Assembly (NCBI GenBank): GCA_965247685.1
Contig: OZ252021.1
Location: 210,001-242,000, forward strand
DNA from: Bdellovibrionales bacterium
GTDB taxonomy: Bacteria; Bdellovibrionota; Bdellovibrionia; Bdellovibrionales; UBA1609
Reading direction: 5' to 3'
Length of the DNA stretch: 32,000 nt
Within the stretch, counting starts at the first letter, position 1, and each line of letters begins with the position of its first letter. Positions 1 to 27,881 of this stretch are shown here, piece by piece. The notes below the pieces were generated by a model, which saw only the letters and a list, made by a program, of their open reading frames with translations, was not told where the DNA came from and did no database searches. A program made the translations under genes and the position numbers.

Positions 1-643
1 AGCAGGTTTTTTTGATATAACACAACTTAATATAACACAACTCCTCCTCAGACACGGAGTAGATCTAAACATCCCAGATACAGACGGTCGAACACCTTTA
101 CACCTAGCAGTTCTCAGAGGCAATACTGATATGGTACAAACTGTACTTGAAAAGGGAGCAAAGCTAAATATCCAAGATGAAATGGGTCGAACACCTTTAC
201 ACCTGGCAGCCGCTGAAAATTATGAAAATGTGGTACAAACTCTCCTCGAACACGGAGCAAAGCCAAATATCCCAGATACAGACGGTCGAACACCTTTACA
301 CCTAGCAGTTCTCGGAGGTAATGCTGATACGGTACAAACCCTACTTGAAAAGAGAGTAGATTCAAATATCCAAGATGAAATGGGTCGAACACCTTTACAT
401 TGGGCTACTGCTGAAGGTTATGAAGGTGTGGTACAAATTCTCCTCGAACACAAAGCAGATCCGAATATCCCAGATAACATGGGTGAAACAGCTTTACATC
501 TGGCAGTCAAAGTAGGTTTTTTTAATATAGCACAACTCCTCCTCAGACACGGAGCAGATCTAAATATCTCAGATAAAAATGGTCGAACAGCTTTCAGTTT
601 AGCAACTCTCAGAGGTCATAAGTTAGTAGATTATGATCTGTGA
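1..643 (+). CDS. Ankyrin-repeat protein, 5' end outside the window (partial)
   Basis: The frame is open from nt 2 (AGFFDITQLNITQLLLRHGVDLNIPDTDGRTPLHLAVLRGNTDMV...). It contains repeated 33-aa units fitting the ANK consensus G-TPLH-A---G----V--LL--GA--N. It ends RGHKLVDYDL* without the C-terminal tail shared by the downstream paralogs. Confidence 0.85.
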   Translation, partial: AGFFDITQLNITQLLLRHGVDLNIPDTDGRTPLHLAVLRGNTDMVQTVLEKGAKLNIQDEMGRTPLHLAAAENYENVVQTLLEHGAKPNIPDTDGRTPLHLAVLGGNADTVQTLLEKRVDSNIQDEMGRTPLHWATAEGYEGVVQILLEHKADPNIPDNMGETALHLAVKVGFFNIAQLLLRHGADLNISDKNGRTAFSLATLRGHKLVDYDL

Positions 644-984
644 ATTTATGGGATGGGAATCTAATCCTAAGAAGCTAGGGAACGATGGAATTGACGGTTA
701 GGTTAATAGAGGAAACACACCTATTCAAATAAAGAATCATAGGAAAGTAGTTAGTAGACTTGAAATTCAAAAGTTTTTAGGAGCAATAACCAATTATGAT
801 TCTGGTATATCTGCAGCTTGGAAATTCATTCCCTCTTCTTTTGAATATAACGCTAAGATTAAAGGTAGAAAAGCTTAAACCTCCTCGCCCTATGGAAAGA
901 AAAAAAGAGCGTATCAAAATCGTTTTCCAATAAATGTGTAAATCTTTCACTGAATGATGCATAGTCTTATAGTTTACTTCACTA

Positions 985-1025
985 TGTAATTATTACACAT
1001 ACGCTCTAATTGGATTGATTATATT
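985..1025 (+). promoter_or_regulatory. Palindrome TGTAA-N3-TTACA plus -10-like hexamer (candidate regulated promoter of the ANK gene at 1159)
   Basis: TGTAATTATTACA at 985-997, then 22 nt, then TATATT at 1020-1025. The same architecture recurs at the paralogs. Confidence 0.5.
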
Positions 1026-1087
1026 CATCTTTTACAGGTAAAGTAACTTCCTCAGTAGTAATCGTTTGGACCGTACAAAGGTCAGTT

Positions 1088-1132
1088 ATGAAAACTTATG
1101 TTTCTGATTATTATAGGGTTGTTTTTAAGTAG
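1088..1132 (+). promoter_or_regulatory. Conserved short upstream ORF in the ANK leader (MKTYVSDYYRVVFK*)
   Basis: ATG 1088 has AAAGG 6 nt upstream. The 14-codon ORF stops 26 nt before the main ATG. Homologous ORFs lie at 6578 and 7769. The same ATG serves as the gene start at 2573 and 5463. Confidence 0.35.
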
Positions 1133-1158
1133 AATATTACTATAAGGATGTAATCAAC

Positions 1159-2163
1159 ATGAAAAACTTAATAAATTTATTCGCTCATTTATTCACTCTT
1201 TTGAGTTTGTCAGTAATCGGGACAATAATATGTTTTACTGCTTATGCAGGAGCAGGAGCAGGAGTAGCAGCAGTAGCAGAATCAAAACAGCAACTTTCGT
1301 CACAATTAAACAACCGAGGAACTAAACTTCTCTTAGCATTGAAATTGGGAAATCTTGCAGCAGTTATGAAACTTTTTTCAGAAGAAAAAACATTAATAAA
1401 TCCGAATGTCAAAGGTGGTATATTGGGTCAAACAGCTTTACACCTAGCAGCCGAAAAAGGGATTTTAGGGATAATAATATCCCTAATCGAGAACTACAAC
1501 GCAAAACTAAATCTCAAAGATAACAAAGGTAAAACAGCTTTACTTATAGCAATTGAATCAGGTCATGCAGATGTGGCGCTACTTCTAATTACAAAGGGAG
1601 CAGATCTAAAGAGCTCAGATAATAATGGTCTAACACCTTTACTTGCAGCAATTAAAGTAGGTCATAAAGGTGTGGTAGAAGCTCTATTTAATAATGGAAT
1701 AAAAGATCTAGGCCAAAATAAAATGGGTTACACAGCTTTGCATTGGGCAACTCTCTACGGTCATTTAAAGATAATGAGGTTTTTAATCACCCTCGGCGAT
1801 GGCGAAGAAAAAAAACTAGATGCCCTAGATGCCAAAGATAAAGGAGGTCTAACACCTTTAATGGGAGCTGCCAAACAAGGTAATTCAGGTGCGGTACAAC
1901 TTCTACTTGAGTACGGAGCAGATTCGAATATCCCAGATAACGGGGGTCTAACAGCTTTACATTGGGCAGCTTTCTTTGGTCATGAACATGTGGTAGAAGC
2001 TCTAGCTGAAGCGGGAGCAGATCCAAATGCCCAAAATAATAGAAATGAAACACCTTTAGGTTTAGCAATTGAAGCACGTCATGATGGTGTGGCAAAAATT
2101 CTCCGCCAACACAGAGCAGTCTCAGGTGGAAACAGTTGTAGACAAATTATTCACTCCATTTGA
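1159..2163 (+). CDS. Secreted ankyrin-repeat protein (334 aa)
   Basis: ATG 1159 has AAGGA about 10 nt upstream. The N-terminus MKNLINLFAHLFTLLSLSVIGTIICFTAYA/GAGAG looks like a Sec signal peptide. There are about seven ANK units (GQTALHLAAEKG..., GKTALLIAIESGHADVALLLITKGADL...). It ends with the shared tail AVSGGNSCRQIIHSI*. Confidence 0.9.
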   Translation: MKNLINLFAHLFTLLSLSVIGTIICFTAYAGAGAGVAAVAESKQQLSSQLNNRGTKLLLALKLGNLAAVMKLFSEEKTLINPNVKGGILGQTALHLAAEKGILGIIISLIENYNAKLNLKDNKGKTALLIAIESGHADVALLLITKGADLKSSDNNGLTPLLAAIKVGHKGVVEALFNNGIKDLGQNKMGYTALHWATLYGHLKIMRFLITLGDGEEKKLDALDAKDKGGLTPLMGAAKQGNSGAVQLLLEYGADSNIPDNGGLTALHWAAFFGHEHVVEALAEAGADPNAQNNRNETPLGLAIEARHDGVAKILRQHRAVSGGNSCRQIIHSI

Positions 2164-2472
2164 AAATAGCTCACTCTCTATGCAGAAGTAATATCAACAC
2201 TTAAAAAAACTACAACCGCAAGTTTATCACAGGTGATGTTTCACCTGTAGCTGTTAGAGTGACAGCAGATAGACTTATATCAAAAGATTTTGTTGAATAT
2301 AATGTTAAATCCTTACCAAGCATAAAATACAAAAAATTATATAAGAAAAAAGTAAAAAAAGAAAAGCTTAAACCTCATCACCCCATGGAAAGAGAAAGAG
2401 ATCGTATCAAAATCGTTGTCCCATAACTGTGTAAAATCTCCACTGAATTATGCACAGTTTAATAATTCACTA
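2164..2472 (+). repeat. Type A inter-cassette spacer (about 300 nt, repeated)
   Basis: Near-identical to 5062-5361, and its 3' third matches 870-984. It begins with the common 3' module CTCACTCT-TATGCAGAAGTA...ACTACAACCGCAAGTTTATCACA. It contains a perfect 8-bp stem-loop ACAGGTGA-TGTT-TCACCTGT at 2229-2248. Confidence 0.85.
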
Positions 2473-2514
2473 TGTAATAATTACATATACTCTCTAATTG
2501 GATTGATTTATATT
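2473..2514 (+). promoter_or_regulatory. Palindrome plus -10-like hexamer upstream of the ANK gene at 2573
   Basis: TGTAATAATTACA at 2473-2485, then 23 nt, then TATATT at 2509-2514. Confidence 0.5.
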
Positions 2515-2572
2515 CATTAGGTAAACTAACTTGCTCAGTAGTAATCCGTTTTAACCCACACAAAGGTCAGTT

Positions 2573-3151
2573 ATGAAAACTTATGTTATCGGGACAATAA
2601 TATGTTTTACTGCTTATGCAGGAGCAGGAGCATCAGAATATCGATTTTTCTTAGCAGTTAAATCTGGAGATATTCAAAAAGTTAAAGAAATCTTGTCAAA
2701 AAAAATAATAGATATAAATACCCACAATAAAAAAGATGAAATAGCTTTAAACCTGGCAGCCGAACGAGGTAATGTAGGTATGTTACAAATTCTCCTCGAA
2801 CTCGGAGCAAAGCTAAATAAAACAGATAAAGAGGACCTTACAGCCTTACATTGGGCAGTTCTCGGAGGTAATGCTGATGTGATACGAACTCTCTTCGAAC
2901 ACGGAGCAGATTTGAATACCCCAGATGAAAGGGGCGAAACAGCCTTACATTGGGCAGTCGCTGAAGGTTATGAAGATCTGGTACGAATTCTCCTCGAACT
3001 CGGAGCAGATCTGAATAAAAAAGATAACTGGGATCAAACACCTTTAGGTTTAGCAATTAAAGCACGTCATGATGGTGTGGTAAAAATTCTCCGCCAACAC
3101 GGAGCAGTCTCAGGTGGAAACAGTTGTAGACAAATTATTCACTCCATTTGA
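2573..3151 (+). CDS. Ankyrin-repeat protein (192 aa) with a shortened signal peptide
   Basis: It has about four ANK units and the tail AVSGGNSCRQIIHSI*. The start ATG 2573 is the ATG that opens the short upstream ORF in the paralogs. Here it is fused in frame to the signal-peptide core (MKTYV-IGTIICFTAYAGAGA). Confidence 0.85.
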   Translation: MKTYVIGTIICFTAYAGAGASEYRFFLAVKSGDIQKVKEILSKKIIDINTHNKKDEIALNLAAERGNVGMLQILLELGAKLNKTDKEDLTALHWAVLGGNADVIRTLFEHGADLNTPDERGETALHWAVAEGYEDLVRILLELGADLNKKDNWDQTPLGLAIKARHDGVVKILRQHGAVSGGNSCRQIIHSI

Positions 3152-3317
3152 AAATAACTCACTCTCTATGCAGAAGTAAAATTAACACTTAAATAAAACT
3201 ACAACCGCAAGTTTATCACATTTGAGCAACTATTTAAAAAAGAACTTACAGTTGTTTTTAGTATAAATATTCAAGAACTTTTTAACTTTTGATTTTTAAC
3301 TTTTGATGATGAAACTA
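3152..3317 (+). repeat. Type B inter-cassette spacer (about 165 nt, repeated)
   Basis: It shares the first 70 nt or so with type A, then reads CACATTTGAGCAACTATTTAAAAAAGAACTTACAGTTGTTTTTAGTATAAATATTCAAGAACTTTTTAACTTTTGAT...GATGATGAAACTA up to the palindrome. The second copy is at 7506-7663, and the last 20 nt or so recur at 6470-6487. Confidence 0.85.
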
Positions 3318-3359
3318 TGTAAATATTACATACATACTCTATATCAGTTTGATTATATT
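3318..3359 (+). promoter_or_regulatory. Palindrome plus -10-like hexamer upstream of the ANK gene at 3469
   Basis: TGTAAATATTACA at 3318-3330, then 23 nt, then TATATT at 3354-3359. Confidence 0.5.
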
Positions 3360-3468
3360 CATTCAATAAGGTAACAGTAATTGTTTGGAGAGATAAGTTA
3401 TAAAAACTTATACTTCTGATTATTATGGGTTTGTTTTTAAATATGATCTCATTACAAGGGTGTATAAT

Positions 3469-5061
3469 ATGAAAAACTTAATAAAATTATTAGCTCATTT
3501 ATTCACTATCATTCTTTTGAGTTTGTCAGTAATCGCAACCGCTCATGCAGACAAAGTAGAATTAAATGAGAAATTTTTCTCAGCAGTTGAATCTGGAGAT
3601 ATTCAACAAGTTAACGAAATGTTGTCAAAAAAAACAGTAGATCTAAATACCAAAAATGAAAAGGGTCTAACACCTTTAATTATAGCTGCCGAACTAGGTC
3701 ATGAGCATGTGGTAGAATCCCTACTCAAACACGGAGCAGATCCAAATATCGAAAGTACAAAAACTATCAAAAATTCTACTTGGGATCAGCAAACTGCTTT
3801 ACATAAGGCAGCTCGCAAGGGCAATGTAAAGGTGATAAAAATTCTCTTTGACTACGGAGCAGATCTAGATAAAGGAGATTGGATGGGTATCACAGCTTTA
3901 CTTATGGCAGCCAAAAATGGTCATATAGATGCGGTACGAACTCTCCTCAAACTCGGAGCAGATCCAAATAAAAAAAGTCATATGGGAACCACTCCTTTAC
4001 GTCGGGCAGCTCTCAATGGTTATAGTAATGTGATAATAGCTTTAGTTACAAATGGAGCAAAAATAGATGCCAAAAGTAACGAAGGTAGCACAGCTTTACA
4101 CATGGCAACCGAACGAGGTCATGAGCATGTGGTACAAACTCTCCTCAAACTCGGAGCAAATCCAAATGAAGAAAATAATTTGAAAGAAACTAGTTTATAT
4201 TGGGCAGCTCGCAAGGGGCATACTGATGTGATAATAGCTTTAGTTAAAAATGGAGCAAATATAGATGCCAGAAGTAAAGGAGGTCTAACACCTTTACATA
4301 TAGCAGCTCACAATGGTAATGCTGATGCGATACGCACTCTCATCGAACTCGGAGCAGATTTGAATACCCCAGATGAAAGGGGTGAAACAGCTTTACATAC
4401 GGCAACTCGCAAGGGCAATGATACTATAGTAAGAATGCTAGTTCAAAACAAAGTAGATATAGATGCCAAAAATAAAGGAGGTAAAACAGCTTTAGATTTG
4501 GCAATTGAACAAGGAGATTATACAGGTGTTGTGACAGTTGTGGAAAATATTCTCCATGTCGCTCATGCAGACAAAGTAGAATTAAATGAGAAACTTTTCT
4601 CAGCAGTTAAATCTGGGGATATTCAAAAAGTTAACAAAATTTTGTCAAAAAAAATAATAGATCTAGATATCCAAAATAGAAAGGGTCGAACAGTTTTAAT
4701 TATAGCTGCCGAACTAGGTCATGAGCATGTGGTAGAATCCTTACTCAAACACGGAGCAGATCCAAATCAAGAAAATAATTTGAGAGAAACAGCTTTACAT
4801 ATAGCAGCTGACAATGGTTATTTTGGCATAGTACAACTTCTCCTCAAATCTGGAGCAAATCCAGATATCCAAAATACCAATAATTACAAAGCTTTAGATC
4901 TAGCAATGAGAACACCAACTTTAGATTCAGCAACTAAAAAACCTTACTTAGATATAATAGCTCTACTCAGCGAAAAAACAAAGATAGGTTTCCTAAAAAG
5001 AGCGCGTGTAAAAAGGATATTAAAAAAGTGTAGTAAAACTATCGGTTCCATAGGAAAATAA
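3469..5061 (+). CDS. Secreted ankyrin-repeat protein (530 aa), in-frame fusion of two cassettes
   Basis: ATG 3469 (MKNLIKLLAHLFTIILLSLSVIATAHA/DKVELNEK) has AAGGG upstream; the track start at 3460 is a GTG. It has about 12 ANK units. The mature N-terminal sequence AHADKVELNEK...GHEHVVESLLKHGADPN recurs internally exactly 1020 nt later (3541-3745 versus 4561-4765). The tail is a variant: KKCSKTIGSIGK*. Confidence 0.85.
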   Translation: MKNLIKLLAHLFTIILLSLSVIATAHADKVELNEKFFSAVESGDIQQVNEMLSKKTVDLNTKNEKGLTPLIIAAELGHEHVVESLLKHGADPNIESTKTIKNSTWDQQTALHKAARKGNVKVIKILFDYGADLDKGDWMGITALLMAAKNGHIDAVRTLLKLGADPNKKSHMGTTPLRRAALNGYSNVIIALVTNGAKIDAKSNEGSTALHMATERGHEHVVQTLLKLGANPNEENNLKETSLYWAARKGHTDVIIALVKNGANIDARSKGGLTPLHIAAHNGNADAIRTLIELGADLNTPDERGETALHTATRKGNDTIVRMLVQNKVDIDAKNKGGKTALDLAIEQGDYTGVVTVVENILHVAHADKVELNEKLFSAVKSGDIQKVNKILSKKIIDLDIQNRKGRTVLIIAAELGHEHVVESLLKHGADPNQENNLRETALHIAADNGYFGIVQLLLKSGANPDIQNTNNYKALDLAMRTPTLDSATKKPYLDIIALLSEKTKIGFLKRARVKRILKKCSKTIGSIGK

Positions 5062-5361
5062 CTCACTCTCTATGCAGAAGTAAAATTAACACTTAAATAA
5101 AACTACAACCGCAAGTTTATCACAGGTGATGTTTCACCTGTAGCTGTTAGAGTGATAGCAGATAGACTTATATCAAAAGATTTTGTTGAATATAATGTTA
5201 AATCCTTACCAAGCATAAAATACAAAAAGTTATATAAGAAAAGAGTGAAAAAAAGCTTAAATCTCATCACCCCATGGAAAGAGAAAGAGATCGTATCAAA
5301 ATCGTTGCCCGATAACTGTGTAAAATCTCCACTGAATTAAGCACAGTGTAATAGTTCACTA
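5062..5361 (+). repeat. Type A inter-cassette spacer, second copy
   Basis: Aligns with 2164-2472, with a few substitutions and an indel in the A-run near 5245. The stem-loop ACAGGTGA-TGTT-TCACCTGT lies at 5122-5141. Confidence 0.85.
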
Positions 5362-5400
5362 TGAATTATTACACACATACTCTAATTAGTTGATCATATT
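5362..5400 (+). promoter_or_regulatory. Degenerate palindrome plus -10-like hexamer upstream of the ANK gene at 5463
   Basis: TGAATTATTACA at 5362-5373 (left arm lacks one T), then 21 nt, then CATATT at 5395-5400. Confidence 0.35.
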
Positions 5401-5462
5401 CCTTTTTTATAGGTAAACTAACTTGCTCAGTAGTAATCGTTTGGACTGCACAAAGGTCAGTT

Positions 5463-6074
5463 ATGAAAACTTATGTTATCGGAACAATAATATTTTTTAC
5501 TGCTTATGCAGGAGCAGGAACTTTGGAAGATCAATTTCTCTCAGCAGTTGGATCTGGAGATATTCAAAAAGTTAACAAAATTTTGTCAAAAAAAATAATA
5601 GATCTAGATATCCAAAATGAAAGGGGTCTAACAGCTTTACACCTGGCAGCCAAAAACGGTGACTTAAATATGGTAGAATCCCTACTCAAACACGGAGCAG
5701 ATCCGGATATCCAAGAAGAAGACAAAAAAACAGCTTTACTTATAGCAACTGAAAACGACCATTTTGATATAGCACAACTCCTCCTCAGACACGGAGCAGA
5801 TCCAAATCTCCAAAATGAACATGGTATAACAGCCTTACATTCAGTAGCTCTCAAAGGTAATGGAAGTATGGTACAAATTCTCCTCGAATACAGAGCAGAT
5901 CCAAATAAAAAAGATAAATGGGGTAGAACGGCTTTAAGTTTAGCAATTAAAGCAGGTCACTTAGATGTAATAGCTCTACTCCATGAAGAAACAGCACATA
6001 GTATCCAAGATAAAGTGAACTCCATGCTTCTAAAGTTGGAATCAAAGTGTAAAGATCTCGTCAGCTCCATTTGA
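5463..6074 (+). CDS. Ankyrin-repeat protein (203 aa) with a shortened signal peptide
   Basis: The N-terminus MKTYVIGTIIFFTAYAGAG shows the same upstream-ORF-ATG fusion as the gene at 2573. It has about four ANK units. The C-terminus ...ESKCKDLVSSI* keeps the Cys-x5-SI end. Confidence 0.85.
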   Translation: MKTYVIGTIIFFTAYAGAGTLEDQFLSAVGSGDIQKVNKILSKKIIDLDIQNERGLTALHLAAKNGDLNMVESLLKHGADPDIQEEDKKTALLIATENDHFDIAQLLLRHGADPNLQNEHGITALHSVALKGNGSMVQILLEYRADPNKKDKWGRTALSLAIKAGHLDVIALLHEETAHSIQDKVNSMLLKLESKCKDLVSSI

Positions 6075-6124
6075 AAATAGCTCACTCTTCTATGCAGAAG
6101 TAAAATCAACACTTAGAAAATAAA

Positions 6125-6139
6125 TGGCATTCCCTACGG
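6125..6139 (-). pseudogene. Fragment of the tRNA-Glu 3' end (duplicated junction)
   Basis: TGGCATTCCCTACGG at 6125-6139 is identical to 8922-8936, the 3' acceptor/CCA end of the intact tRNA-Glu. The identity extends about 60 nt leftwards into the ANK 3' flank (6066-6139 versus 8863-8936, one mismatch). After position 6139 only weak similarity to the T-arm remains. Confidence 0.75.
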
Positions 6140-6378
6140 ACTACTAACCGGAGTATCCTGTTAAAATTTTGTATTTTGATGTAGTTCTAATTGTACTATA
6201 TACTCCTATTTACATAAGTATGATTATTAAGCAATAATTATAGCATCATCCGAGTAGTAATATCTTTTATTTCTTTTGGATATTTTTCACACTTTTGTCC
6301 TTTTCCTTTAGGTAGCAAATGCCATTTGAACGTTCAAAAAGAATCAATTCAATTTTTAGAACCACTATTTGTTAAATC

Positions 6379-6492
6379 ATGAACATGTTGAGCAAAGAGC
6401 AAGTTTTACAAATGAACTATCCAGACTTCATTGGATTTATGGGGATGGAAAACACCTCCTTGTTGGAGGACTTTGATGATGAAACTATGTAA
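6379..6492 (+). pseudogene. Possible N-terminal remnant of a SAM-dependent methyltransferase gene
   Basis: The 37-codon ORF MNMLSKEQVLQMNYPDFIGFMGMENTSLLEDFDDETM* resembles, from memory, the N-termini of class I methyltransferases (..LSKEE.L.MNY.DF......N). From about 6470 the sequence becomes the type B spacer, so the ORF is cut off there. Confidence 0.25.
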
Positions 6493-6528
6493 GTATTACA
6501 TACATATTCTAATTAGTTTGACTATATT
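6488..6528 (+). promoter_or_regulatory. Palindrome plus -10-like hexamer upstream of the ANK gene at 6648
   Basis: TGTAAGTATTACA at 6488-6500, then 22 nt, then TATATT at 6523-6528. Confidence 0.5.
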
Positions 6529-6577
6529 CATTAGGTAAAGTAATTTGCTCATCAGTAATTATTTGGAAAGATAAGTT

Positions 6578-6646
6578 ATGAAAACTTATGCTTCTGATTA
6601 TTATGGGTTTGTTTTTAAGTATAATCTCATTACAAGGGGTGTATAA
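6578..6646 (+). promoter_or_regulatory. Conserved short upstream ORF in the ANK leader (MKTYASDYYGFVFKYNLITRGV*)
   Basis: ATG 6578. The stop TAA at 6644-6646 lies 1 nt before the main ATG 6648. Confidence 0.3.
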
Positions 6647-6647
6647 T

Positions 6648-7505
6648 ATGAAAAACTTAATAAAATTATTCGCTCATTCATTCACTATCACTCTTTTGAG
6701 TTTGTCAGTACTCGCAACCGCTCATGCAGAAAAAGTAGAATTAAATGAGAAATCTTTATCACCAGAAGAAAGGGAATTTTTCTCAGCAGTTAAATCTGGG
6801 GATAATAAAAGGGTTGAAGAAATTTTGTCAAAAGAAGATATAGATCTAAATATCCAAAATGAAAGGGGTCTAACAGCTTTAATGATAGCTGCCGAACTAG
6901 GTCATGAGCGTGTGGTAGAATCCCTACTCAAACACGGAGCAGATCCAAATATCGAAAGTAAAAATATCAAACATTCTACTTGGGATCAGAGCACTGCTTT
7001 ACATACGGCAGTTCGCAAGGGCAATGTAAAGTTGATAAAAATTCTCTATGACTACAAAGCAGATCTAGATAAAGGGGATTGGATGGATTACACAGCTTTA
7101 AACCAGGCAGCTGCTGAAAATAATGAAAATGTGGTACAAACTCTCCTCAAACTCGGAGCAGATCCAAATAAAGAAAATGAATTGAAAGAAACTACTTTAC
7201 ATGAGGCAGCTCGCATGGGTCATACTAATATGATAATAGCTTTAGTTACAAATGGAGCAAATATAGATGCCAAAGGTAGAGAAGGTCAAACAGCTTTACA
7301 TTGGGCAGCCTGGAACGGTCATGCAGGTCTGGTACAGGCCCTGCTCAAACTCGGAGCAGATTCAAATATCCAAGATGATAAATATAGAATAGCTTTAGAT
7401 TTTGCAATTACACGAGGTTATAAAGGTGTGGAAGATATTCTCCGTAAACACAAAGCAGTCTCAGGTGCAAACAACAGTTGTAAACAAACTATCAGCTCCA
7501 TTTGA
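6648..7505 (+). CDS. Secreted ankyrin-repeat protein (285 aa)
   Basis: ATG 6648 (MKNLIKLFAHSFTITLLSLSVLATAHA/EKVELNEK) has AAGGGG 8 nt upstream and matches the paralog starts. The track start at 6588 would add 20 non-conserved residues. It has about six ANK units and the tail AVSGANNSCKQTISSI*. Confidence 0.8.
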   Translation: MKNLIKLFAHSFTITLLSLSVLATAHAEKVELNEKSLSPEEREFFSAVKSGDNKRVEEILSKEDIDLNIQNERGLTALMIAAELGHERVVESLLKHGADPNIESKNIKHSTWDQSTALHTAVRKGNVKLIKILYDYKADLDKGDWMDYTALNQAAAENNENVVQTLLKLGADPNKENELKETTLHEAARMGHTNMIIALVTNGANIDAKGREGQTALHWAAWNGHAGLVQALLKLGADSNIQDDKYRIALDFAITRGYKGVEDILRKHKAVSGANNSCKQTISSI

Positions 7506-7663
7506 AAATAGCTCACTCTTCTATGCAGAAGTAGTCTCAACACTTAAAAAAACTACAACCGCAAGTTTATCACATTTGAGTAACTATTTAAAAAAGAACT
7601 TACAGTTGTTTTTAGTATAAATATTCAAGAACTTTTTAACTTTTGATTTTGATGATGAAACTA
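7506..7663 (+). repeat. Type B inter-cassette spacer, second copy
   Basis: Aligns with 3152-3317 almost base for base. Confidence 0.85.
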
Positions 7664-7719
7664 TGTAAGTATTACATACATATTCTAATCAGCTTGATTC
7701 TAATCAGCTTGATTATATT
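7664..7719 (+). promoter_or_regulatory. Palindrome plus -10-like hexamers upstream of the ANK gene at 7840
   Basis: TGTAAGTATTACA at 7664-7676, then 22 nt, then TCTAAT at 7699-7704. A 15-nt tandem duplication (TCTAATCAGCTTGAT x2, 7683-7712) moves the ancestral TATATT to 7714-7719. Confidence 0.45.
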
Positions 7720-7768
7720 CATTCAATAAGGTAACTTTCTCAGCAGTAATTATTTGGAAAGATAAGTT

Positions 7769-7813
7769 ATGAAGACTTGTACTTCTGATTATTATGGGTT
7801 TGTTTTTAAGTAG
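7769..7813 (+). promoter_or_regulatory. Conserved short upstream ORF in the ANK leader (MKTCTSDYYGFVFK*)
   Basis: ATG 7769, stop TAG at 7811-7813, 26 nt before the main ATG 7840. Confidence 0.35.
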
Positions 7814-7839
7814 AATATTACTATAAGGATGTAATCAAC

Positions 7840-8871
7840 ATGAAAAACTTAATAAAATTATTCGCTCATTTATTCACTATCATTCTTTTGAGTTTGTCAG
7901 TAATCGCAACCGCTCATGCAGACAAAGTAGAATTAAATGAGAAACTTTTCTCAGCAGTTAAATCTGGGGATAATAAAAGGGTTGAAGAAATTTTGTTAAA
8001 AAAAATAATAGATCTAGATATCCAAAATGAAAGGGGTCGAACAGCTTTAATGATAGCTGCCGAACTAGGTCATGAACGTGTGGTAGAATCCCTACTCAAA
8101 CACGGAGCAGATCCAAATATCGAAAGTAAAAATATCAAACATTCTACTTTGGATCAGAGCACTGCTTTACATAAGGCAGTTCGCAAGGGCAATGCAAAGT
8201 TGATACAAATTCTCTCTGACTACAAAGCAGATCTAGATAAAGGAGATTGGTTGGGTCTAACACCTTTACATTGGGCAATCGCTGAAGGTTATGAAGATCT
8301 GGTACAAATTCTCCTCAAACTCGGAGCAAATCCAAATATCCAAAATAGAAAGGGTCGAACACCTTTACATTGGGCAGCTCGCATGGGTCATACTAATATG
8401 ATAATAGCTTTAGTTACAAATGGAGCAAATATAGATGCCAAAGGTAGAGAAGGTCTAACACCTTTACATTGGGCAGCCTTTAACGGTTATAATGGTGCGG
8501 TACAGACCCTCCTCGAACACAAAGCAGATCCAAATATCCCAGATAAAGACGGTCGAACACCTTTAAATTTGGCAATTGCACGAGGTCATACTAATGTGAT
8601 AATAGCTTTAGTTACAAATGGAGCAAATATAGATGCCAAAGGTAGAGAAGGTCTAACACTTTTAAATTGGGCAGCCTCTAACGGTCATGCAGGTCTGGTA
8701 CAGACCCTGCTCAAACTCGGAGCAGATCCATATATCCCAGATGATAAAAATAAAACAGCTTTAGATTTGGCAATTGCACAAGGTCATAAAGGTGTGGAGA
8801 ATATTCTCCGTAAACACAGAGCAGTCTCAGGTGCAAACAACAGTTGTAAACAAACTATCAGCTCCATTTGA
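7840..8871 (+). CDS. Secreted ankyrin-repeat protein (343 aa)
   Basis: ATG 7840 has AAGGA upstream. The signal peptide is MKNLIKLFAHLFTIILLSLSVIATAHA/DKVELNEK. It has about eight ANK units (GRTPLHWAARMGHTNMIIALVTNGANIDAK...) and the tail AVSGANNSCKQTISSI*. Confidence 0.9.
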   Translation: MKNLIKLFAHLFTIILLSLSVIATAHADKVELNEKLFSAVKSGDNKRVEEILLKKIIDLDIQNERGRTALMIAAELGHERVVESLLKHGADPNIESKNIKHSTLDQSTALHKAVRKGNAKLIQILSDYKADLDKGDWLGLTPLHWAIAEGYEDLVQILLKLGANPNIQNRKGRTPLHWAARMGHTNMIIALVTNGANIDAKGREGLTPLHWAAFNGYNGAVQTLLEHKADPNIPDKDGRTPLNLAIARGHTNVIIALVTNGANIDAKGREGLTLLNWAASNGHAGLVQTLLKLGADPYIPDDKNKTALDLAIAQGHKGVENILRKHRAVSGANNSCKQTISSI

Positions 8872-8921
8872 AAATAGCTCACTCTTCTATGCAGAAGTAA
8901 TATCAACACTTAGAAAATAAA

Positions 8922-8996
8922 TGGCATTCCCTACGGGACTCGAACCCGTGTCTTCACCGTGAAAGGGTGATGTCCTAACCGCTAGACGAAGGGAAC
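8922..8996 (-). tRNA. tRNA-Glu (anticodon UUC), CCA encoded
   Basis: The reverse complement is GTTCCCTTCGTCTAGCGGTTAGGACATCACCCTTTCACGGTGAAGACACGGGTTCGAGTCCCGTAGGGAATGCCA. Acceptor stem GTTCCCT/AGGGAAT, anticodon stem TCACC/GGTGA with loop CTTTCAC, T-loop GGTTCGAGTCC. Confidence 0.92.
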
Positions 8997-8999
8997 ACA

Positions 9000-9076
9000 T
9001 GGTGACCCGCCTTGGGCTCGAACCAAGGACCCTCTCCTTAAAAGGGAGATGCTCTACCAAACTGAGCTAGCGGGTC
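9000..9076 (-). tRNA. tRNA-Lys (anticodon UUU), CCA encoded
   Basis: The reverse complement is GACCCGCTAGCTCAGTTTGGTAGAGCATCTCCCTTTTAAGGAGAGGGTCCTTGGTTCGAGCCCAAGGCGGGTCACCA. Acceptor stem GACCCGC/GCGGGTC, anticodon stem TCTCC/GGAGA with loop CTTTTAA. Confidence 0.92.
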
Positions 9077-9214: not shown

Positions 9215-10516
9215 TTAAAATAAAGAACGAACCCAAATAAATTCATCTCTCTTCGGTCCCACAGATACCATATCAATAGAAATTTTTAACTCTTCTTCAA
9301 TAAACTTCAAATAAATCTGAGCATTTTTCGGCAAATCTTTTACTGATCGAATAGATTTCAAATCCTCATGCCAACCCAAAAATTCCTTATAAATAGGCTT
9401 GCATCGTTTTAAATCACTCTCATAAACAGGATAGTGATCTATTACCTTTCCGTCTAACTCATAACTCACACACAACTTGATCTTTTCTAAACCAGAAAGA
9501 ACATCCAACTTCATCAAAGCTAAACACGTAAAGCCATTCAGACGAATCGCATATTTTAAAGCTATAAGATCGAGCCATCCACACCTTCTTAATCTGTCGG
9601 TCGTCGAACCCCGTTCTTTCCCCTTTTCTGATAAATGCGAATTTTCAGGGGAGTCTTTTTCACACTCCGAAGGAAAGGGTCCATACCCCACACGAGTGAC
9701 ATAAGCCTTAGCCACACCCACAACCTTATGGATATGCTTCCAACCTATACCTAAACCTGTGAGTGCAGAACCAGTTAAAGTCGAAGAGCTGGTCACATAA
9801 GGATAAGTTCCATGAAAAATATCAAGCAAAACACCTTGGGCACCTTCCAGAAGAACTTTTTTTCCTTCCTGAAAAGCCTGATGAATTAATAACGATGTGT
9901 CTTTACAACAATAAAGTTTTAAACTCTCTCGCACAGGAATTAATTTTTCAATCAAAGAATCTACGGAGTAACCCTCATATTGATAGAATTCTTTCATCAA
10001 AAATAATTTCTCTTTAGAAGAATTCACAAGTTTTTCCCTCAAATCATCTAGAGGTAAAAACAAATCCCTAAAGAGAAGAGCTTTTCGAGAAATTCTATCC
10101 TCATAAGCAGGGCCTATTCCTCTTCCTGTAGTTCCAATTTTAGACTTGCCTGCGCTTTCTTCCCTCAACTGGTCTAAATGTTTGTGATAGTCGAGCAAAA
10201 TAGTGGACGACTCGGACACCACCAACTGCTGATCATTTTCTAAATAGCCTGATTTTTTTAAGGCTTGAATTTCCTCCATCAAACCAAAAACATCGAGCAC
10301 TACCCCTGCTCCAATCACACAAATGGTGTGAGGATGGAGTACTCCGGAAGGCACTAGGTGCAGGATAATTCTATTTCCATTAATATTTAATGTATGCCCT
10401 GCGTTAGCCCCACCTTGGTAGCGAACAATATAATCCATATGTGAAGCAAAGACATCGACAAGCTTACCCTTACCTTCATCACCCCACTGAGAGCCTATAA
10501 CAACAATTCCAGACAC
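9215..10516 (-). CDS. purA: Adenylosuccinate synthetase
   Basis: 433 aa. The N-terminus VIGSQWGDEGKGKLVD (P-loop of PurA), GGANAGHT and TTGRGIGPAYEDR are hallmark PurA motifs. The start codon is GTG at 10516. Confidence 0.95.
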   Translation of the reverse strand: MSGIVVIGSQWGDEGKGKLVDVFASHMDYIVRYQGGANAGHTLNINGNRIILHLVPSGVLHPHTICVIGAGVVLDVFGLMEEIQALKKSGYLENDQQLVVSESSTILLDYHKHLDQLREESAGKSKIGTTGRGIGPAYEDRISRKALLFRDLFLPLDDLREKLVNSSKEKLFLMKEFYQYEGYSVDSLIEKLIPVRESLKLYCCKDTSLLIHQAFQEGKKVLLEGAQGVLLDIFHGTYPYVTSSSTLTGSALTGLGIGWKHIHKVVGVAKAYVTRVGYGPFPSECEKDSPENSHLSEKGKERGSTTDRLRRCGWLDLIALKYAIRLNGFTCLALMKLDVLSGLEKIKLCVSYELDGKVIDHYPVYESDLKRCKPIYKEFLGWHEDLKSIRSVKDLPKNAQIYLKFIEEELKISIDMVSVGPKRDEFIWVRSLF

Positions 10517-22885: not shown

Positions 22886-23851
22886 ATGCAAGGCTATAAA
22901 GTATCTTTTAAAGAAGCTTGCAAACTACTACAACAAGGTGATGTGGTTTCTATTCCTACAGAAACAGTATATGGATTGGCTGGAGATATTAGTAATGCCG
23001 AAACAATAAAAAAAATTTTTCATATAAAACAAAGACCCTTTTTTGATCCTTTGATCGTCCATTTTTCTCACTGGAGTCAATTAAAAAAAATAGCTCAATG
23101 TTCTTCTCCTGTCACAGAACGTTTATCTCAATCTTTTCACCCGGGACCTTTGACGTTGGTGCTCCCAAAAAAAGAAGAAATCTCTGATCTAGTTACATCC
23201 CATCTTCCTACGGTAGCAGTACGAATACCCTCTCATTCTTTGACATTGAAGCTTTTACGAGAGACTCAACTACTTTTAGCGGCGCCTAGTGCTAATTTGT
23301 TTTCAAAAATAAGTCCCACTCGTGCCGAACATGTGACACTCTCTTTATCCGTTCCTGTATTAGATGGAGGTCCTTGCGATGTAGGAATTGAATCAACTAT
23401 TTTGGAAGTGCAGGAAGATCAAAAAACACTTGTTGTATTAAGACCCGGAGTGATTGGTTTGAAAGAACTCCATAAATTTTTAAAATCTAATAACTTCACA
23501 AATTGGAGTGTTCATTTATCTGATTCTAATCTATCTACTCATCCTGGACAGTTTCACGCTCACTACACTCCGGATGCACCATTGGTATTAGTTCAAGTTC
23601 AAAAAAGGATTACTTCTGATGCAATCATCAAAAAAATAAAAGAATTCTATCCCCTTCTTGAACCAGAAGAATATAAAATCTCAGATGACCCTTATCTCTT
23701 AGCGAGAAATCTTTATCACAATTTAAGAAATCTTTCTCAAAATTCTGTAGGTTACGTTGTGAGAACTTATCCATTCAAATATAAAAATGATGCTTGGAGA
23801 GCTGTCTGGAACCGTCTTGAAAAAGCTTCTTCCAAAACCATTAATCTTTAA
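22886..23851 (+). CDS. tsaC: L-threonylcarbamoyladenylate synthase (Sua5/YwlC-type TsaC, YrdC plus Sua5 domains)
   Basis: 321 aa. It has PTETVYGLAGD, RPFFDPLIVH, AVRIPSH and LAAPSANLFSKISPT, and the length fits the two-domain Sua5 form. Its last 11 nt overlap the convergent gene at 23841-25310. Confidence 0.85.
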   Translation: MQGYKVSFKEACKLLQQGDVVSIPTETVYGLAGDISNAETIKKIFHIKQRPFFDPLIVHFSHWSQLKKIAQCSSPVTERLSQSFHPGPLTLVLPKKEEISDLVTSHLPTVAVRIPSHSLTLKLLRETQLLLAAPSANLFSKISPTRAEHVTLSLSVPVLDGGPCDVGIESTILEVQEDQKTLVVLRPGVIGLKELHKFLKSNNFTNWSVHLSDSNLSTHPGQFHAHYTPDAPLVLVQVQKRITSDAIIKKIKEFYPLLEPEEYKISDDPYLLARNLYHNLRNLSQNSVGYVVRTYPFKYKNDAWRAVWNRLEKASSKTINL

Positions 23852-25310
23852 AACTATTTTGGAGAGAATCTAAAGTATCACGGACATCCCTTTGATATTG
23901 CTTTCTTACTTTATCCATTTCATATGTAGATTCAAAACCGATGTAAACTACATCTCCTGCGATAACAGCATAAGCAGAAACACCAGCTAAAGAGACAGCA
24001 CCAATACCTATACCGCGTGCGATACGACCTAGTCTGTGGAAGAAAGATTTTCGACCTTCTAACACTTGATTGGTGACATTTTTCAAGTCTTCTCCTGCTT
24101 TCCTTATCTTCATCTCTTCTTCACTAACTTTAACATCTTGAGCTGCACTTGTTTTTGGATCAGATGTTTGACTCCTGTCGACATTGTTATCAGCTGCACT
24201 TGTTTTTGGATCAGATGTTTGACTCCTGTCGACATTGTTATCAGCTATGGCACGTTTGCTTTGTTCATACTCTTCATTTATGGCAAGTTTGCTTTGTTCA
24301 TACTCTTCATACGCTTCATTTACGGTAAGTTTTCTTTGTTCATTCGCTACAGCTATGGCAAATTTTCTTTTTCCATCCTCTTCAGCTATGGCACGAACTT
24401 TTTGTTTATTCGCTTCACCTAGGGCACGTTTTCTTTGTTCATTCGCTTCATCTATGGCACGTTCTCTTTCAACCCCCGTCTCCTTCTCCGCTTCAACTAG
24501 GGCACGAGCTTTTTGTTTATCCGCTTCAACTATGGCACGTTTTCTTTGTTCATCCGCTTCAACTAGGGCACGTTTTCTTTGTTCATTCGCTTCAGCTATG
24601 GCACGTTTGTTTTGTCCATTCGCTTTAACTACGACACGAGCTTTTTGTTTATCCGCTTCAACTAGGGCACGAACTTTTTGTTTATTCGCTTCAACTGGGG
24701 CATCTTCTTTTTTCGATTTTTCTGTTGCCACTAGGTCATCAATTTTTCTTTTTTGTTTATTCATTTGTTCAAATAGGACTGTGCTCTTTTCTGGGTCAGC
24801 CTTTATAGCTTGGTCAAGTATTCCTTGTTGAATCTTCACCGCTCTCCTTAGTTTTCTAGCACCAGGCTTTTTATTAGGAGTTAAGAGTCGGACAGTACCT
24901 TTTCCAAATGCTGAAGCTTTATGTACCATATATGCAGTACCAAGAGCTGCTGGCACAGCGATATATATACCACGCTCACTGTTTACACCAATCGCTTCAT
25001 TCATCTGTTGGAATTCATCTATAAAGACAGAAACTCCCTGTTTAAAAATCAACTCTATCCTATCTTCACCGTCTAATTGTTCAAAAGCAAGAGCTATGTT
25101 TTCCCATTTAGAAGTAATCGATTCTAATTGATCGAGATCTATATCTCCACCATTTGTTCCAAGATTATTCCTCACATCTTGTGCAAGCAACATAGCTAAT
25201 TGATCGTCTAGTGACTCATTTGGTTCTTCATTATTTTCTACAGCATTTGCTGACAGACTCAAAAGAATGACAGTGAATAAACTGACGAATAATTTTATTA
25301 AGTTTTTCAT
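23841..25310 (-). CDS. Signal-peptide protein with hendecad (11-aa) Lys/Glu/Ala-rich repeat core and C-terminal glycine-rich hydrophobic segment (489 aa)
   Basis: The N-terminus MKNLIKLFVSLFTVILLSLSANA/VENNEE uses the same signal-peptide module as the ANK genes. The core is about 13 units of the type VEADKQKARAL / AEANEQRKRAL, followed by 2 x DNNVDRSQTSDPKTSAA. The C-terminus has RGIGIGAVSLAGVSAYAVIAGDVVYIGF plus a charged tail. Confidence 0.8.
   Translation of the reverse strand: MKNLIKLFVSLFTVILLSLSANAVENNEEPNESLDDQLAMLLAQDVRNNLGTNGGDIDLDQLESITSKWENIALAFEQLDGEDRIELIFKQGVSVFIDEFQQMNEAIGVNSERGIYIAVPAALGTAYMVHKASAFGKGTVRLLTPNKKPGARKLRRAVKIQQGILDQAIKADPEKSTVLFEQMNKQKRKIDDLVATEKSKKEDAPVEANKQKVRALVEADKQKARVVVKANGQNKRAIAEANEQRKRALVEADEQRKRAIVEADKQKARALVEAEKETGVERERAIDEANEQRKRALGEANKQKVRAIAEEDGKRKFAIAVANEQRKLTVNEAYEEYEQSKLAINEEYEQSKRAIADNNVDRSQTSDPKTSAADNNVDRSQTSDPKTSAAQDVKVSEEEMKIRKAGEDLKNVTNQVLEGRKSFFHRLGRIARGIGIGAVSLAGVSAYAVIAGDVVYIGFESTYEMDKVRKQYQRDVRDTLDSLQNSFKD
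24141..24242 (-). repeat. 51-nt tandem repeat x2 (encodes DNNVDRSQTSDPKTSAA twice)
   Basis: AGCTGCACTTGTTTTTGGATCAGATGTTTGACTCCTGTCGACATTGTTATC is repeated with a period of 51 nt. An identical pair lies at 26236-26337. Confidence 0.9.
24243..24700 (-). repeat. Degenerate 33-nt coding repeats (hendecads)
   Basis: The pattern ...GCTTCAACTAGGGCACG(A/T)...TTT(C/G)TTTGTT(C/T)AT(C/T)C... recurs every 33 nt, with two irregular units. Confidence 0.8.
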
Positions 25311-25365
25311 ATTAATTACACTCCCTATAATAATTTAAAAACAACCTCATAATAATCAGATTTCA

Positions 25366-25407
25366 AATTTAGCACAATAAAAATTTCTAAACCATGTAAT
25401 TATTACA
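25366..25407 (-). promoter_or_regulatory. Palindrome plus -10-like hexamer upstream of the hendecad-repeat gene at 23841-25310
   Basis: On the coding (minus) strand: TGTAATAATTACA (25395-25407), then 23 nt, then TAAATT (25366-25371) preceded by TGC (extended -10-like). The ATG is about 55 nt further on. Confidence 0.5.
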
Positions 25408-25415
25408 CTTTAATA

Positions 25416-25667
25416 TTACTGTTGTTGTCTTTCTATTTCTGTTAATTCCTCTTTAAACCATTCTTGAATGATTCGATTCTGATCTTGATTCTCTTGATAT
25501 TGATACCATAGCATAATAGCCACTCCTCCAATTCCAACTCCTACTCCACTTAGAACAAATTTTTTCGCATAAGAAGGTGGAATGTGTAATTTATTTAATG
25601 AAGCAAAATATGCTTGAGACAGTGGAGATTTGATGAACTTAAAAGATTTTAAAATAAGGGAAAAAAG
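25416..25667 (-). pseudogene. Truncated copy (C-terminal 83 codons) of the 273-aa membrane-protein gene
   Basis: Aligns with 27882-28133. It translates to FSLILKSFKFIKSPLSQAYFASLNKLHIPPSYAKKFVLSGVGVGIGGVAIMLWYQYQENQDQNRIIQEWFKEELTEIERQQQ*. It has no start codon and no upstream part, and it ends at a junction with tsaC-derived sequence. Confidence 0.8.
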
Positions 25668-25946
25668 AAGAAATCTCTGATCTAGTTACATCCCATCTTC
25701 CTACGGTAGCAGTACGAATACCTTCTCATTCTTTGACATTGAAGCTTTTACAACAGACTCAACTACTTTTAGCAGCGCCTAGTACTAACTTGTTTTCAAA
25801 AATAAGTCCCACTCGTGTTAAGAAATCTTTCTCAAAATTCTGTAGGTTACGTTGTGAGAACTTATCCATTCAAATATAAAAATGATGCTTGGAGAGCTGT
25901 CTGGAACCGTCTTGAAAAAGCTTCTTCCAAAACCATTAATCTTTAA
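25668..25946 (+). pseudogene. tsaC fragment copy with an internal deletion
   Basis: 25668-25817 aligns with tsaC 23174-23324, and 25818-25946 aligns with tsaC 23723-23851. About 398 nt of tsaC are missing between the two pieces, and there is no 5' part. Confidence 0.8.
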
Positions 25947-27693: not shown

Positions 27694-27748
27694 ATTAATT
27701 ACACTCCCTATAATAATTTAAAAACAACCCCATAATAATCAGATTTCA

Positions 27749-27790: not shown

Positions 27791-27860
27791 TCATAACATT
27801 AATGCTACAGTCTTGCTACTTCTTCTAATTCCTCTTTAAGCCATTAAAATTTCTAAACCA

Positions 27861-27873: not shown

Positions 27874-27881
27874 TTTTAATA

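Follow-up and report, generated by a model that had tools for sequence, protein, structure and literature searches.

The question raised by this locus is whether a tandem array of ankyrin-repeat (ANK) genes with shared flanks is a programmed variation system or a family of exported proteins that has expanded and diversified in place. The array occupies the left end of the window, by which we mean the whole stretch of 32,000 nucleotides that was analysed (contig OZ252021.1 of the Bdellovibrionales bacterium assembly GCA_965247685.1, positions 210,001 to 242,000). We favour, with a probability of roughly 0.65, a lineage-specific local family of at least seven Sec-exported ANK genes, which lies at a variable tRNA-Glu/tRNA-Lys/purA site in a reduced genome and encodes diversifying exported binders. 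Each gene would be expressed on its own, from a probable operator (the 13-bp palindrome) and a leader of ∼170 nt followed by a Shine-Dalgarno sequence; the product would consist of a signal peptide with its signal-peptidase-I site, the ANK domain and a short Cys tail. The sequence shows that the repeat number changes, and that genes have been fused and segments lost, through unequal crossing-over, both among the 99-nt repeats and from gene to gene. The flanks are kept alike and reassorted by gene conversion in short tracts and by segmental duplication of the junction blocks. Amino-acid changes build up at least as fast as silent changes. The products would be exported to the periplasm and probably beyond it, where their variable concave faces may bind proteins of a eukaryotic host or prey, and they would probably be co-regulated with other secreted proteins.

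Layout of the array

Seven + strand open reading frames (ORFs) fill ∼8.9 kb and all of them matched Pfam Ank/Ank_2, with E-values from 1e-29 to 1e-85 and scores of 99-281 bits against cut-offs of 21-27. All seven proteins therefore carry tandem 33-residue repeats above the Pfam gathering thresholds, in agreement with the original prediction of seven ANK genes on one strand. Since g1 runs off the window edge, seven is a minimum. The predicted range of about 4 to about 12 repeats per gene was recovered with a hidden Markov model built on 33-residue units taken from the window itself. The distances between the array genes were 317-573 nt. The ∼6.3 kb of coding sequence in the seven genes contained neither frameshifts nor premature stops, and the G+C content of the remainder of the window falls within the range of the array (0.32-0.41). 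The array and its right flank are composed as follows.

2-643, +: g1, ANK gene; at least 7 repeats; 5' end lost at the window edge; tail ..GHKLVDYDL and stop; no 3' module
644-1158, +: first intergenic region; 644-865 unique; 866-986 similar to the distal part of spacer A (79%); palindrome 985-997; leader with upstream ORF (uORF) MKTYVSDYYRVVFK and stop
1159-2163, +: g2, ANK gene; 7 repeats; hybrid N-terminus MKNLINLFAHLFT + LLSLSVIGTIICFTAYAGAGAG; tail ..AVSGGNSCRQIIHSI
2164-2231, +: 3' module of g2; CTCACTCTCTATGCAGAAGTA at 2170-2190 and ACTACAACCGCAAGTTTATCACA at 2209-2231
2232-2572, +: spacer A and upstream region of g3; 97% identical to 5125-5462; palindrome 2473-2485; leader with 122-nt deletion
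2573-3151, +: g3, ANK gene; 4 repeats and N-cap; deletion-variant N-terminus MKTYVIGTIICFTAYAGAGA; tail as in g2
3152-3468, +: 3' module of g3 (3158-3178, 3198-3220), spacer B and full leader of g4; palindrome 3318-3330
3469-5061, +: g4, ANK gene; 12 repeats; two-gene in-frame fusion; tail ..KKCSKTIGSI + GK
5062-5462, +: 3' module of g4 (5062-5082, 5102-5124), spacer A and upstream region of g5; degenerate palindrome at ∼5361-5372; leader with 122-nt deletion
5463-6074, +: g5, ANK gene; 4 repeats; N-terminus MKTYVIGTIIFFTAYAGAG; tail ..ESKCKDLVSSI
6075-6149, +: start of the 3' module after g5 (first 50 nt, core 6081-6102) and tRNA-Glu fragment (6125-6149)
6150-6647, +: region between g5 and g6; 6150-6468 unique and non-coding; palindrome 6488-6500; full leader
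6648-7505, +: g6, ANK gene; 6 repeats; signal peptide MKNLIKLFAHSFTITLLSLSVLATAHA, cleaved before E; tail ..AVSGANNSCKQTISSI
7506-7839, +: 3' module of g6 (7512-7533, 7552-7574), spacer B and full leader of g7; palindrome 7664-7676; 15-nt tandem duplication 7682-7714
7840-8871, +: g7, ANK gene; 8 repeats; signal peptide MKNLIKLFAHLFTIILLSLSVIATAHA, cleaved before D; tail as in g6
8872-8921, +: start of the 3' module after g7 (first 50 nt, core 8878-8899); abuts tRNA-Glu
8922-8996 and 9000-9076, -: tRNA-Glu(UUC) and tRNA-Lys(UUU); with purA the conserved anchor of the variable site
9215-10516, -: purA; right flank of the array beyond the two tRNAs

Flanking modules

The flanks are conserved at the nucleotide level far beyond chance, as had been predicted. 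The 3' core CTCACTCT(T)CTATGCAGAAGTA was found exactly after g2-g7 (6 matches, 0 expected), and the palindrome had 8 matches in the window where 0.18 were expected, all of them upstream of ANK or coiled-coil genes. The set of modules proposed for every gene proved less uniform. Alignment of the upstream regions gave a full 5' module, consisting of the palindrome TGTAATnATTACA, a proximal and a distal leader, a Shine-Dalgarno sequence (AAGGA/AAGGG) and the start ATG AAA AAC (MKNLIKLF...), for g2, g4, g6 and g7 only. The upstream block with palindrome and proximal leader was common to g2-g7, although the palindrome of g5 lacks one base. An identical 122-nt deletion in g3 and g5 has removed the distal leader, the ribosome-binding site, the ATG and 19 codons, and because of it two of the six visible 5' ends are without the MKNLIKLF start. 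Through it the ATG of the leader uORF (MKTYV) now stands before the latter half of a 'type II' signal peptide (VIGTIICFTAYAGAGA), and the ORFs of g3 and g5 begin at this ATG, reading MKTYVIGTII.... g2 carries both signal-peptide halves and thus has a 34-residue hydrophobic N-terminus; an in-frame hexanucleotide repeat (GCAGGA, x5.7, 1246-1279) codes for the Ala-Gly run that ends it.

The palindrome is a probable operator for a transcription factor. It may be a Fur/Zur box, given a resemblance to the 7-1-7 boxes of Bacillus subtilis. The leader uORF reads MKTY[V/A]SDYYG[F/V]VFK.. and has its own AAAGG-type ribosome-binding site (1088-1132, 6578-6646 and 7769-7813); its start codon is ATA in g4. 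Two perfect short tandem duplications, one of 15 nt (x2.2, 7682-7714) just 3' of the g7 palindrome and one of 14 nt (x2.1, 3279-3307) just 5' of the g4 palindrome, alter the spacing of elements in the upstream regions. When the 5' pattern ATGAAAAAYTTAATAAAWTTATT was scanned over metagenomes, it returned 81 loci, all of which were chance matches of 23-49 nt next to unrelated proteins.

The first ∼50 nt of the predicted 3' module followed g2-g7 but not g1, whose reading frame departs from the family consensus immediately after ..GHK, and the 23-nt block ACTACAACCGCAAGTTTATCACA followed g2, g3, g4 and g6 only. After g7 its position is taken by the intact tRNA-Glu and after g5 by a 25-nt copy of the tRNA-Glu 3' end (6125-6149, matching 8922-8946). 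The blocks 6061-6149 and 8858-8946 were 95.6% identical; by the tRNA fragment, a tandem duplication took in a segment whose end lies 25 nt inside tRNA-Glu. Two alternative spacers had been described, and both were found: type A after g2 and g4 (97% identical) and type B after g3 and g6 (98% between the copies at 3192-3296 and 7546-7650). The spacer after g5 (6150-6468) matched nothing else in the window. A search against Rfam gave only the two tRNAs, and an alignment fold showed no covariation and an energy of only -2.15 kcal/mol, with fold z-scores from -0.5 to +1.1. A structured RNA in either module was therefore rejected, and the 3' module is neither a terminator hairpin nor a known RNA element.

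The protein tail proposed for the family, ILR-H-AVSG-NSC-Q-I-SI, was present in g2 and g3 (..AVSGGNSCRQIIHSI) and in g6 and g7 (..AVSGANNSCKQTISSI), whereas g4 and g5 keep only the final C-x7 motif, sharing no more than the last eight residues with the other tails. The g4 tail is two codons longer (GK), its normal TGA stop having been lost by mutation. Six of the seven tails end in C-(K/R/S)-(Q/D/K)-(I/T/L)-(I/V/G)-(H/S/G)-S-I, with the Cys at -8 in five of them and at -10 in g4, by read-through. None of 8,965 background ORFs from unrelated loci carried this C-terminal Cys pattern, which was defined after the sequences had been seen. A CaaX motif or PDZ ligand was rejected, as the Cys is at -8 and not at -4 and IHSI does not fit S/T-x-Phi.

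Recombination between the copies

Recombination between the array copies is well supported by comparison of the paralogues. The module identity matrices were incongruent, so that each module groups the genes differently. The palindrome block separated {g2,g3,g5} from {g4,g6,g7}; the distal leader with the signal peptide placed g2 with g7 (94%) and g4 with g6 (95%); and the last 45 codons united {g2,g3} and {g6,g7}. By the 50-nt 3' untranslated region (UTR), g3 equalled g4 (100%), g5 was close to g7 (98%) and g2 to g6 (96%), and by spacer the groups were {g2,g4} and {g3,g6}. At two variable sites within the 50-nt 3' UTR all four allele combinations were present. A three-way alignment of g4, g6 and g7 gave 72 informative sites in 34 runs, in which tracts of 25-60 nt backed alternating pairs (runs test, permutation p∼0.001). 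The junction blocks, each consisting of a 3' end, a spacer and the next 5' end, were 93-98% identical, against 60-75% for the in-register ANK cores.

Single events are also recorded in the array. In g4 a fusion junction at ∼4535-4560 (..VENILH joined to VAHADKVELNEK..) leads from the final repeat of an upstream gene straight into the c-region of the signal peptide (AHADKVELNEK..) of a downstream one. Together, the incongruent modules, the runs test, the duplicated junctions, this fusion, the deletion shared by g3 and g5 and the tRNA fragment support the unequal crossing-over or gene conversion between shared flanks that the original prediction had proposed.

Possible selection on the repeats

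The ratio of non-synonymous to synonymous substitution rates (dN/dS, Nei-Gojobori) ranged from 0.96 to 4.1 in nine paralogous blocks. Pooling of the g6/g7 blocks gave an odds ratio of 3.3 (Fisher p=0.039), and pooling of four comparisons, which are partly dependent, gave 2.8 (p=0.001). As a control, the N-terminal domain of two coiled-coil paralogues in the same window gave 0.59. The near-invariant ANK positions were the framework residues G4, T6, L8, A11, G15 and L23, and the most variable ones included the canonical binding-face positions 2, 3, 5, 13 and 14, plus 10, 17 and 18. The most similar, alignable paralogous blocks diverge by 5-16%, yet all ORFs are intact. These data are suggestive of diversifying selection on the binding surfaces, which they appear to fit better than decay, although they do not prove it.

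Predicted signal peptides and export

Signal peptides were judged by a heuristic only (charged n-region, hydrophobic h-region by Kyte-Doolittle hydropathy, AXA c-region). By this measure the layout of a Sec substrate for signal peptidase I was clear in g4, g6, g7 and the two coiled-coil proteins (cc1 and cc2), which have Lys at positions 2 and 6 and a 12-residue core with a mean hydropathy of 2.1-2.8; the core of g2 is within this range too, but its hydrophobic stretch is unusually long. Predicted cleavage-type sites lie between AHA and D, ANA and V, and AGA and S. No lipobox of the form L-[AS]-[GA]-C was present: the signal peptides of g4, g6, g7, cc1 and cc2 have no Cys and the Cys of g2 and g3 (..IICFTAY..) is outside a lipobox context, so that the bacterial lipoprotein class (signal peptidase II) was rejected. 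Membership in the Legionella Dot/Icm type IV Ank families was likewise rejected, as the best score against the NCBIfam T4SS_Ank* equivalogs was 136 bits, far below the cut-off of 600, and the matches covered repeats only. A search with the first 45 residues of g7 against 1.84 billion representative proteins, which has low sensitivity for a short signal peptide, returned nothing but g6 itself and a spurious match, a repetitive protein of eukaryotic origin.

That ANK proteins should carry Sec signal peptides had been called unusual, which overstates the case, as Chromulinavorax, RARP-1 and Bd3460 show. Such peptides occur on 78% of the 98 ANK proteins of Chromulinavorax destructans (Dependentiae; PMC6561590). 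Sec export or a periplasmic location applies to RARP-1 of Rickettsia, AnkB of Pseudomonas and the ANK immunity protein of Bdellovibrio (PMC9553169, PMC8289219), and ANK proteins of sponge-symbiont phages also have signal peptides (10.1101/608950). As such peptides are documented on bacterial ANK proteins, the argument for novelty from the signal peptide fails.

The site in related genomes

The genome is reduced (∼1.28 Mb) and Bdellovibrionota-related. g2, g6 and two neighbouring housekeeping proteins formed singleton clusters at 90% identity, and purA formed a one-member cluster, all on one contig of 1,280,446 bp. The nearest purA sequences were 83, 80 and 79% identical and come from metagenome contigs between 46 kb and 1.16 Mb long (the two largest 1.16 and 0.59 Mb); no strain closer than 83% purA identity was present in the databases searched. 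Named purA matches at ∼60% were Bdellovibrionales. A contig search with purA was uninformative on close relatives, because the matches listed reached at most 49% identity and were dominated by the universal motif QWGDEGKG.

The order oppABC-epmA-reductase-purA-tRNA-Lys-tRNA-Glu was kept in the loci of the three closest relatives (L081-L083), whereas the site after tRNA-Glu varies among them and carries AbiEi/AbiEii, a D12-class methyltransferase, Sel1 or ANK proteins. The cargo is a lipoprotein and a secreted Sel1 protein in L081, and AbiE with two secreted, weakly ANK-like proteins in L082 (80% purA identity). The Sel1 protein (L081 12386-13288) and the weakly ANK-like pair (L082 15244-16386 and 16612-17889) have similar N-termini, in which a signal peptide is followed by (A/S)SC(S/K)(N/D)(A/L)F; here, too, different repeat families share a single N-terminal module. 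In more distant relatives (L165-L167, ∼64% purA identity), where the protein genes around purA were inspected, purA is surrounded by LRR and HEAT proteins, a lipase, an M9 collagenase and a GIY-YIG/SNIPE nuclease. Throughout, the genes upstream keep their order. The gene content of the clade points to dependence on a eukaryotic host. A sponge-associated member of the Bdellovibrionota also has a reduced genome of 1.24 Mb that is ANK-rich, with 12 Ank domains (PMC9944714).

The ANK array was absent from the relatives examined. The best-scoring external match to g7 was 34% identical over 89% of the query, the highest listed identity was 45% over 63%, and none reached 50%. Because the relatives are without the array and no external protein is at least 50% identical to g7, the array is best explained as a recent, lineage-specific expansion within a variable tRNA-flanked site, and as an ANK expansion that was independent of the external ones.

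Points weighing on this interpretation

Several observations weigh against reading the array as a diversifying family of exported binders. A dN/dS of at least 1 is equally compatible with relaxed constraint, conversion mosaics distort the synonymous rate, and single dN/dS comparisons were not significant, with small counts. The idea that the array is still varying comes solely from comparison of its paralogues. The N-termini of g3 and g5 are weaker as signal peptides, having one Lys and a hydrophobic core of ∼2.0. Scans of the array for sigma-70 promoters and intrinsic terminators gave no more sites than shuffled sequence; no consistent promoter could be defined and no terminators were found after the genes.

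The 5' module outside the array

The 5' module is not confined to ANK genes. It also heads two non-ANK coiled-coil repeat genes on the opposite strand, ∼15-19 kb away.

25936-27693 (with leader 25936-27873), -: cc2, non-ANK coiled-coil repeat gene; palindromes 27778-27790 and 27861-27873
23841-25310 (with leader 23841-25407), -: cc1, tandem paralogue of cc2; same 5' module; palindrome 25395-25407

Across the distal leader and the N-terminal half of the signal peptide, the nucleotide identity between ANK and coiled-coil genes was 84-91% (87-91% for cc2 against the ANK copies). The 5' module is thus a general expression and export unit and not an ANK-specific flank, and the ANK genes and the coiled-coil pair are probably co-regulated, as both carry it. 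The two genes arose from a ∼2.5-kb tandem duplication (23168-28133, 88-96% identical) and differ in the number of internal repeats of 33, 54 or 66 nt; the second copy of the duplication also carries 157 nt from the 3' part of a neighbouring tsaC-like gene (23168-23324, matching 25661-25817). Their products of 489 and 585 aa each have a signal peptide and a hydrophobic C-terminal segment. They had no Pfam or NCBIfam match, and a word-indexed search for homologues of the first 194 residues of cc2 found none. In their leaders (- strand, near 25330-25380 and 27710-27760) ..SDYYGVVFK.. is in frame from a GTG.

A looser form of the palindrome, TGTAAnnnTTACA, occurred at 28779-28791, 76 nt upstream of a gene for a probable secreted protein of 273 aa with a signal-peptide-like N-terminus (27882-28703). 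In relatives it was found upstream of a secreted repeat protein (L082 3051-3063), upstream of a lipase gene (L165, with positions 8726 and 17179) and in front of an apparent operon with the M9 collagenase (L166 20322, L167 14869). This amounts to four independent sites in ∼92 kb of four related loci, where a base-composition estimate gives ∼0.3. The spread of TGTAAnnnTTACA suggests a clade-wide putative operator for a regulon of exported proteins. The C-terminal Cys motif recurs as well: two tandem secreted proteins of another repeat family in L082 (3218-4765 and 4805-6574) end in NKCEKVFSKF and NKCKEVFSKL, with no nucleotide similarity between the flanks of these genes and the 3' module of the window. 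They sit between oppC and epmA and show faint 'integrase repeat' matches with a GEWKGW motif. The Cys motif could be a second sorting signal, or chance.

Alternative explanations

These three findings, namely the 5' module on both ANK and coiled-coil genes, the Cys motif in L082 and the palindrome upstream of secreted-protein genes, are the basis of a tentative and rather doubtful proposal, namely that secreted repeat proteins follow an addressing system particular to the clade, with the array as one visible part of it. It would comprise the TGTAAnnnTTACA operator, the leader with its Sec signal peptide and the C-terminal octapeptide, placed on unrelated cargo, which would be the ANK and coiled-coil proteins here and the 'integrase-repeat'-like proteins in L082. 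The octapeptide, C-(polar)-(polar)-Phi-Phi-[S/H]-[S/K]-Phi-COOH, would direct a second step, which might be passage through the outer membrane, attachment to the surface or uptake by the host.

An unlikely alternative, though still a live one, takes the genes for a periplasmic inhibitor or immunity array, in which each paralogue neutralises a different secreted enzyme or toxin, the bacterium's own or that of a competitor. The lineage is Bdellovibrionota-like and B. bacteriovorus has a periplasmic ANK immunity protein (PMC8289219, PMC9553169), which blocks peptidoglycan endopeptidases of its own cell; ANK is a known immunity fold, and a signal peptide with no obvious further secretion signal fits the periplasm. 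Tandem arrays of immunity paralogues have been described, and the homogeneous polyimmunity loci of Zhang et al. 2012 resemble the array in being tandem, same-strand, divergent paralogues of one protein-binding fold (PMC3482391). Those loci are compact and apparently polycistronic (PMC3482391) and often have toxin or recombinase genes close by, whereas here spacers of 317-573 nt contain individual leaders, each leading into a signal peptide. Nor is a toxin or hydrolase gene paired with the array in the window, and the 32 kb contain neither nearby toxin genes nor a flanking recombinase. The 5' module also heads coiled-coil proteins, which are unlikely immunity factors, and the cargo of the relatives is typically eukaryote-directed (Sel1, LRR, HEAT, collagenase).

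It is quite improbable that the genes are decaying or neutral duplicates, that is, unconstrained copies whose flanks are alike through recent duplication and conversion only. Such decay would agree with the dN/dS of ∼1 in several comparisons, with non-coding flanks that are at least as conserved as the coding parts, and with lesions of the flanks (no 3' module in g1, the original start lost in g3 and g5, a degenerate palindrome in g5). It sits poorly with ∼6.3 kb that has stayed open in seven genes at this divergence, and with a fusion and a 122-nt deletion that each preserved an open frame and a signal-peptide-like N-terminus. The framework positions are nearly invariant while the binding-face positions vary, and the pooled non-synonymous excess goes beyond neutrality.

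The array could instead have arrived on a mobile element or genomic island that entered at the tRNA-Glu 3' end, and not have expanded natively in place, an origin that we consider improbable to the same degree as decay. The array does abut tRNA-Glu, the terminal 25 nt of the tRNA (3' end) are repeated 2.8 kb into it in the manner of an att site, and in relatives the site carries other cargo that includes AbiE and the methyltransferase. The tRNA repeat, however, runs on for 64 nt into the ANK 3' module (6061-6124 matches 8858-8921), which is the signature of a tandem duplication with its breakpoint inside the tRNA, whereas an att core would not extend in this way. The visible 32 kb show neither integrase nor phage genes, although the left end of the array is beyond the window. 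The G+C content of the array does not set it apart from the rest of the window, and opposite-strand genes at a distance of 15-19 kb have the same 5' module.

The original prediction had likened the array to contingency or antigenic-variation loci, with the flanks as recombination handles for frequent cassette swapping or on/off switching within a population. Conserved flanks around variable cores, short conversion tracts, a dN/dS of at least 1 and predicted signal peptides on the products are all in keeping with this likeness, which is nevertheless not supported by the locus: it has no silent cassettes, simple-sequence tracts or invertible elements, and we regard such a programme as very unlikely. 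Antigenic variation of the pilE/pilS, vlsE or msp2 type uses one expression site and promoterless silent cassettes. Here a separate leader, ribosome-binding site and start codon were present for each of the six genes whose 5' end lies in the window, and since every copy is a complete 5' unit, no one site of expression draws on silent cassettes. Neither homopolymer nor simple-sequence tracts were found in promoters or 5' coding regions, and neither an invertible segment nor flanking inverted repeats; the short repeats that do occur are in frame or non-switching (GCAGGA x5.7 in g2 and the 14-15-nt x2 duplications in the spacers), which speaks against phase variation. The annotated and the long ORFs in these 32 kb include no recombinase. 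The fusion and the deletion followed by duplication are fixed structural events and not reversible switches. An integron cassette array was rejected, as the genes have long leaders of their own, no attC-like imperfect palindrome is present in the 3' module (fold z +0.9 to +1.1) and no integrase was seen in the window.

Relation to known systems

Wolbachia ANK genes are scattered and mostly without Sec signal peptides, whereas the genes here are adjacent and have one shared regulatory and export module. What the two have in common is size change and recombination: in Wolbachia, ANK genes gain and lose repeats at short direct repeats and evolve as mosaics through intragenic recombination (PMC3563639). 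Phage-aided transfer of ANK genes between strains has been described there (PMC3563639); no phage genes were seen in this window.

Chromulinavorax destructans and the sponge-associated Bdellovibrionota likewise have a small genome and many ANK paralogues, mostly with signal peptides (PMC6561590, PMC9944714), but the copies described here lie in one tight tandem array with homogenised non-coding flanks. RARP-1, AnkB of Pseudomonas aeruginosa and the ANK protein of B. bacteriovorus, one of them from the same phylum, also have an N-terminal Sec signal (PMC9553169, PMC8289219). These are single, conserved proteins with housekeeping or immunity roles, in contrast to a diversifying multi-copy array without an adjacent partner gene. 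In layout the 5' module resembles the phytoplasma 'sequence-variable mosaic' motif (PF12113), in which one signal-peptide module stands on unrelated mature proteins such as SAP11 and SAP54 (PMC8026896); the resemblance is in layout only, since PF12113 had no match in a Pfam scan of nine proteins. The shared block here adds a leader of ∼100 nt and an upstream palindrome. The organism is Gram-negative, unlike the phytoplasma case, and export would thus end in the periplasm unless there is a second step.

The array is a further case of the known ANK diversification in host-dependent bacteria, a fairly familiar route to binders of host or prey targets. Reduced relatives of Bdellovibrio have only lately been recognised as host-associated, and this locus supplies a small, sequence-defined group of candidate exported binders whose diversification is visible. 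The shared control and export module could allow the whole secretome of the lineage to be listed from nothing more than its genome sequence. Should the C-terminal Cys motif turn out to be a sorting signal, it would mark an undescribed second export step; otherwise the locus would be one more ANK expansion by duplication and conversion.

Towards the right end of the window, a gene for a protein of 415 aa (30740-31987, -) contains an 84-nt tandem repeat (x2.1, 87%, at 31668-31844). By eye, the C-terminal part of its product resembles a lytic transglycosylase (..AYNAG..).

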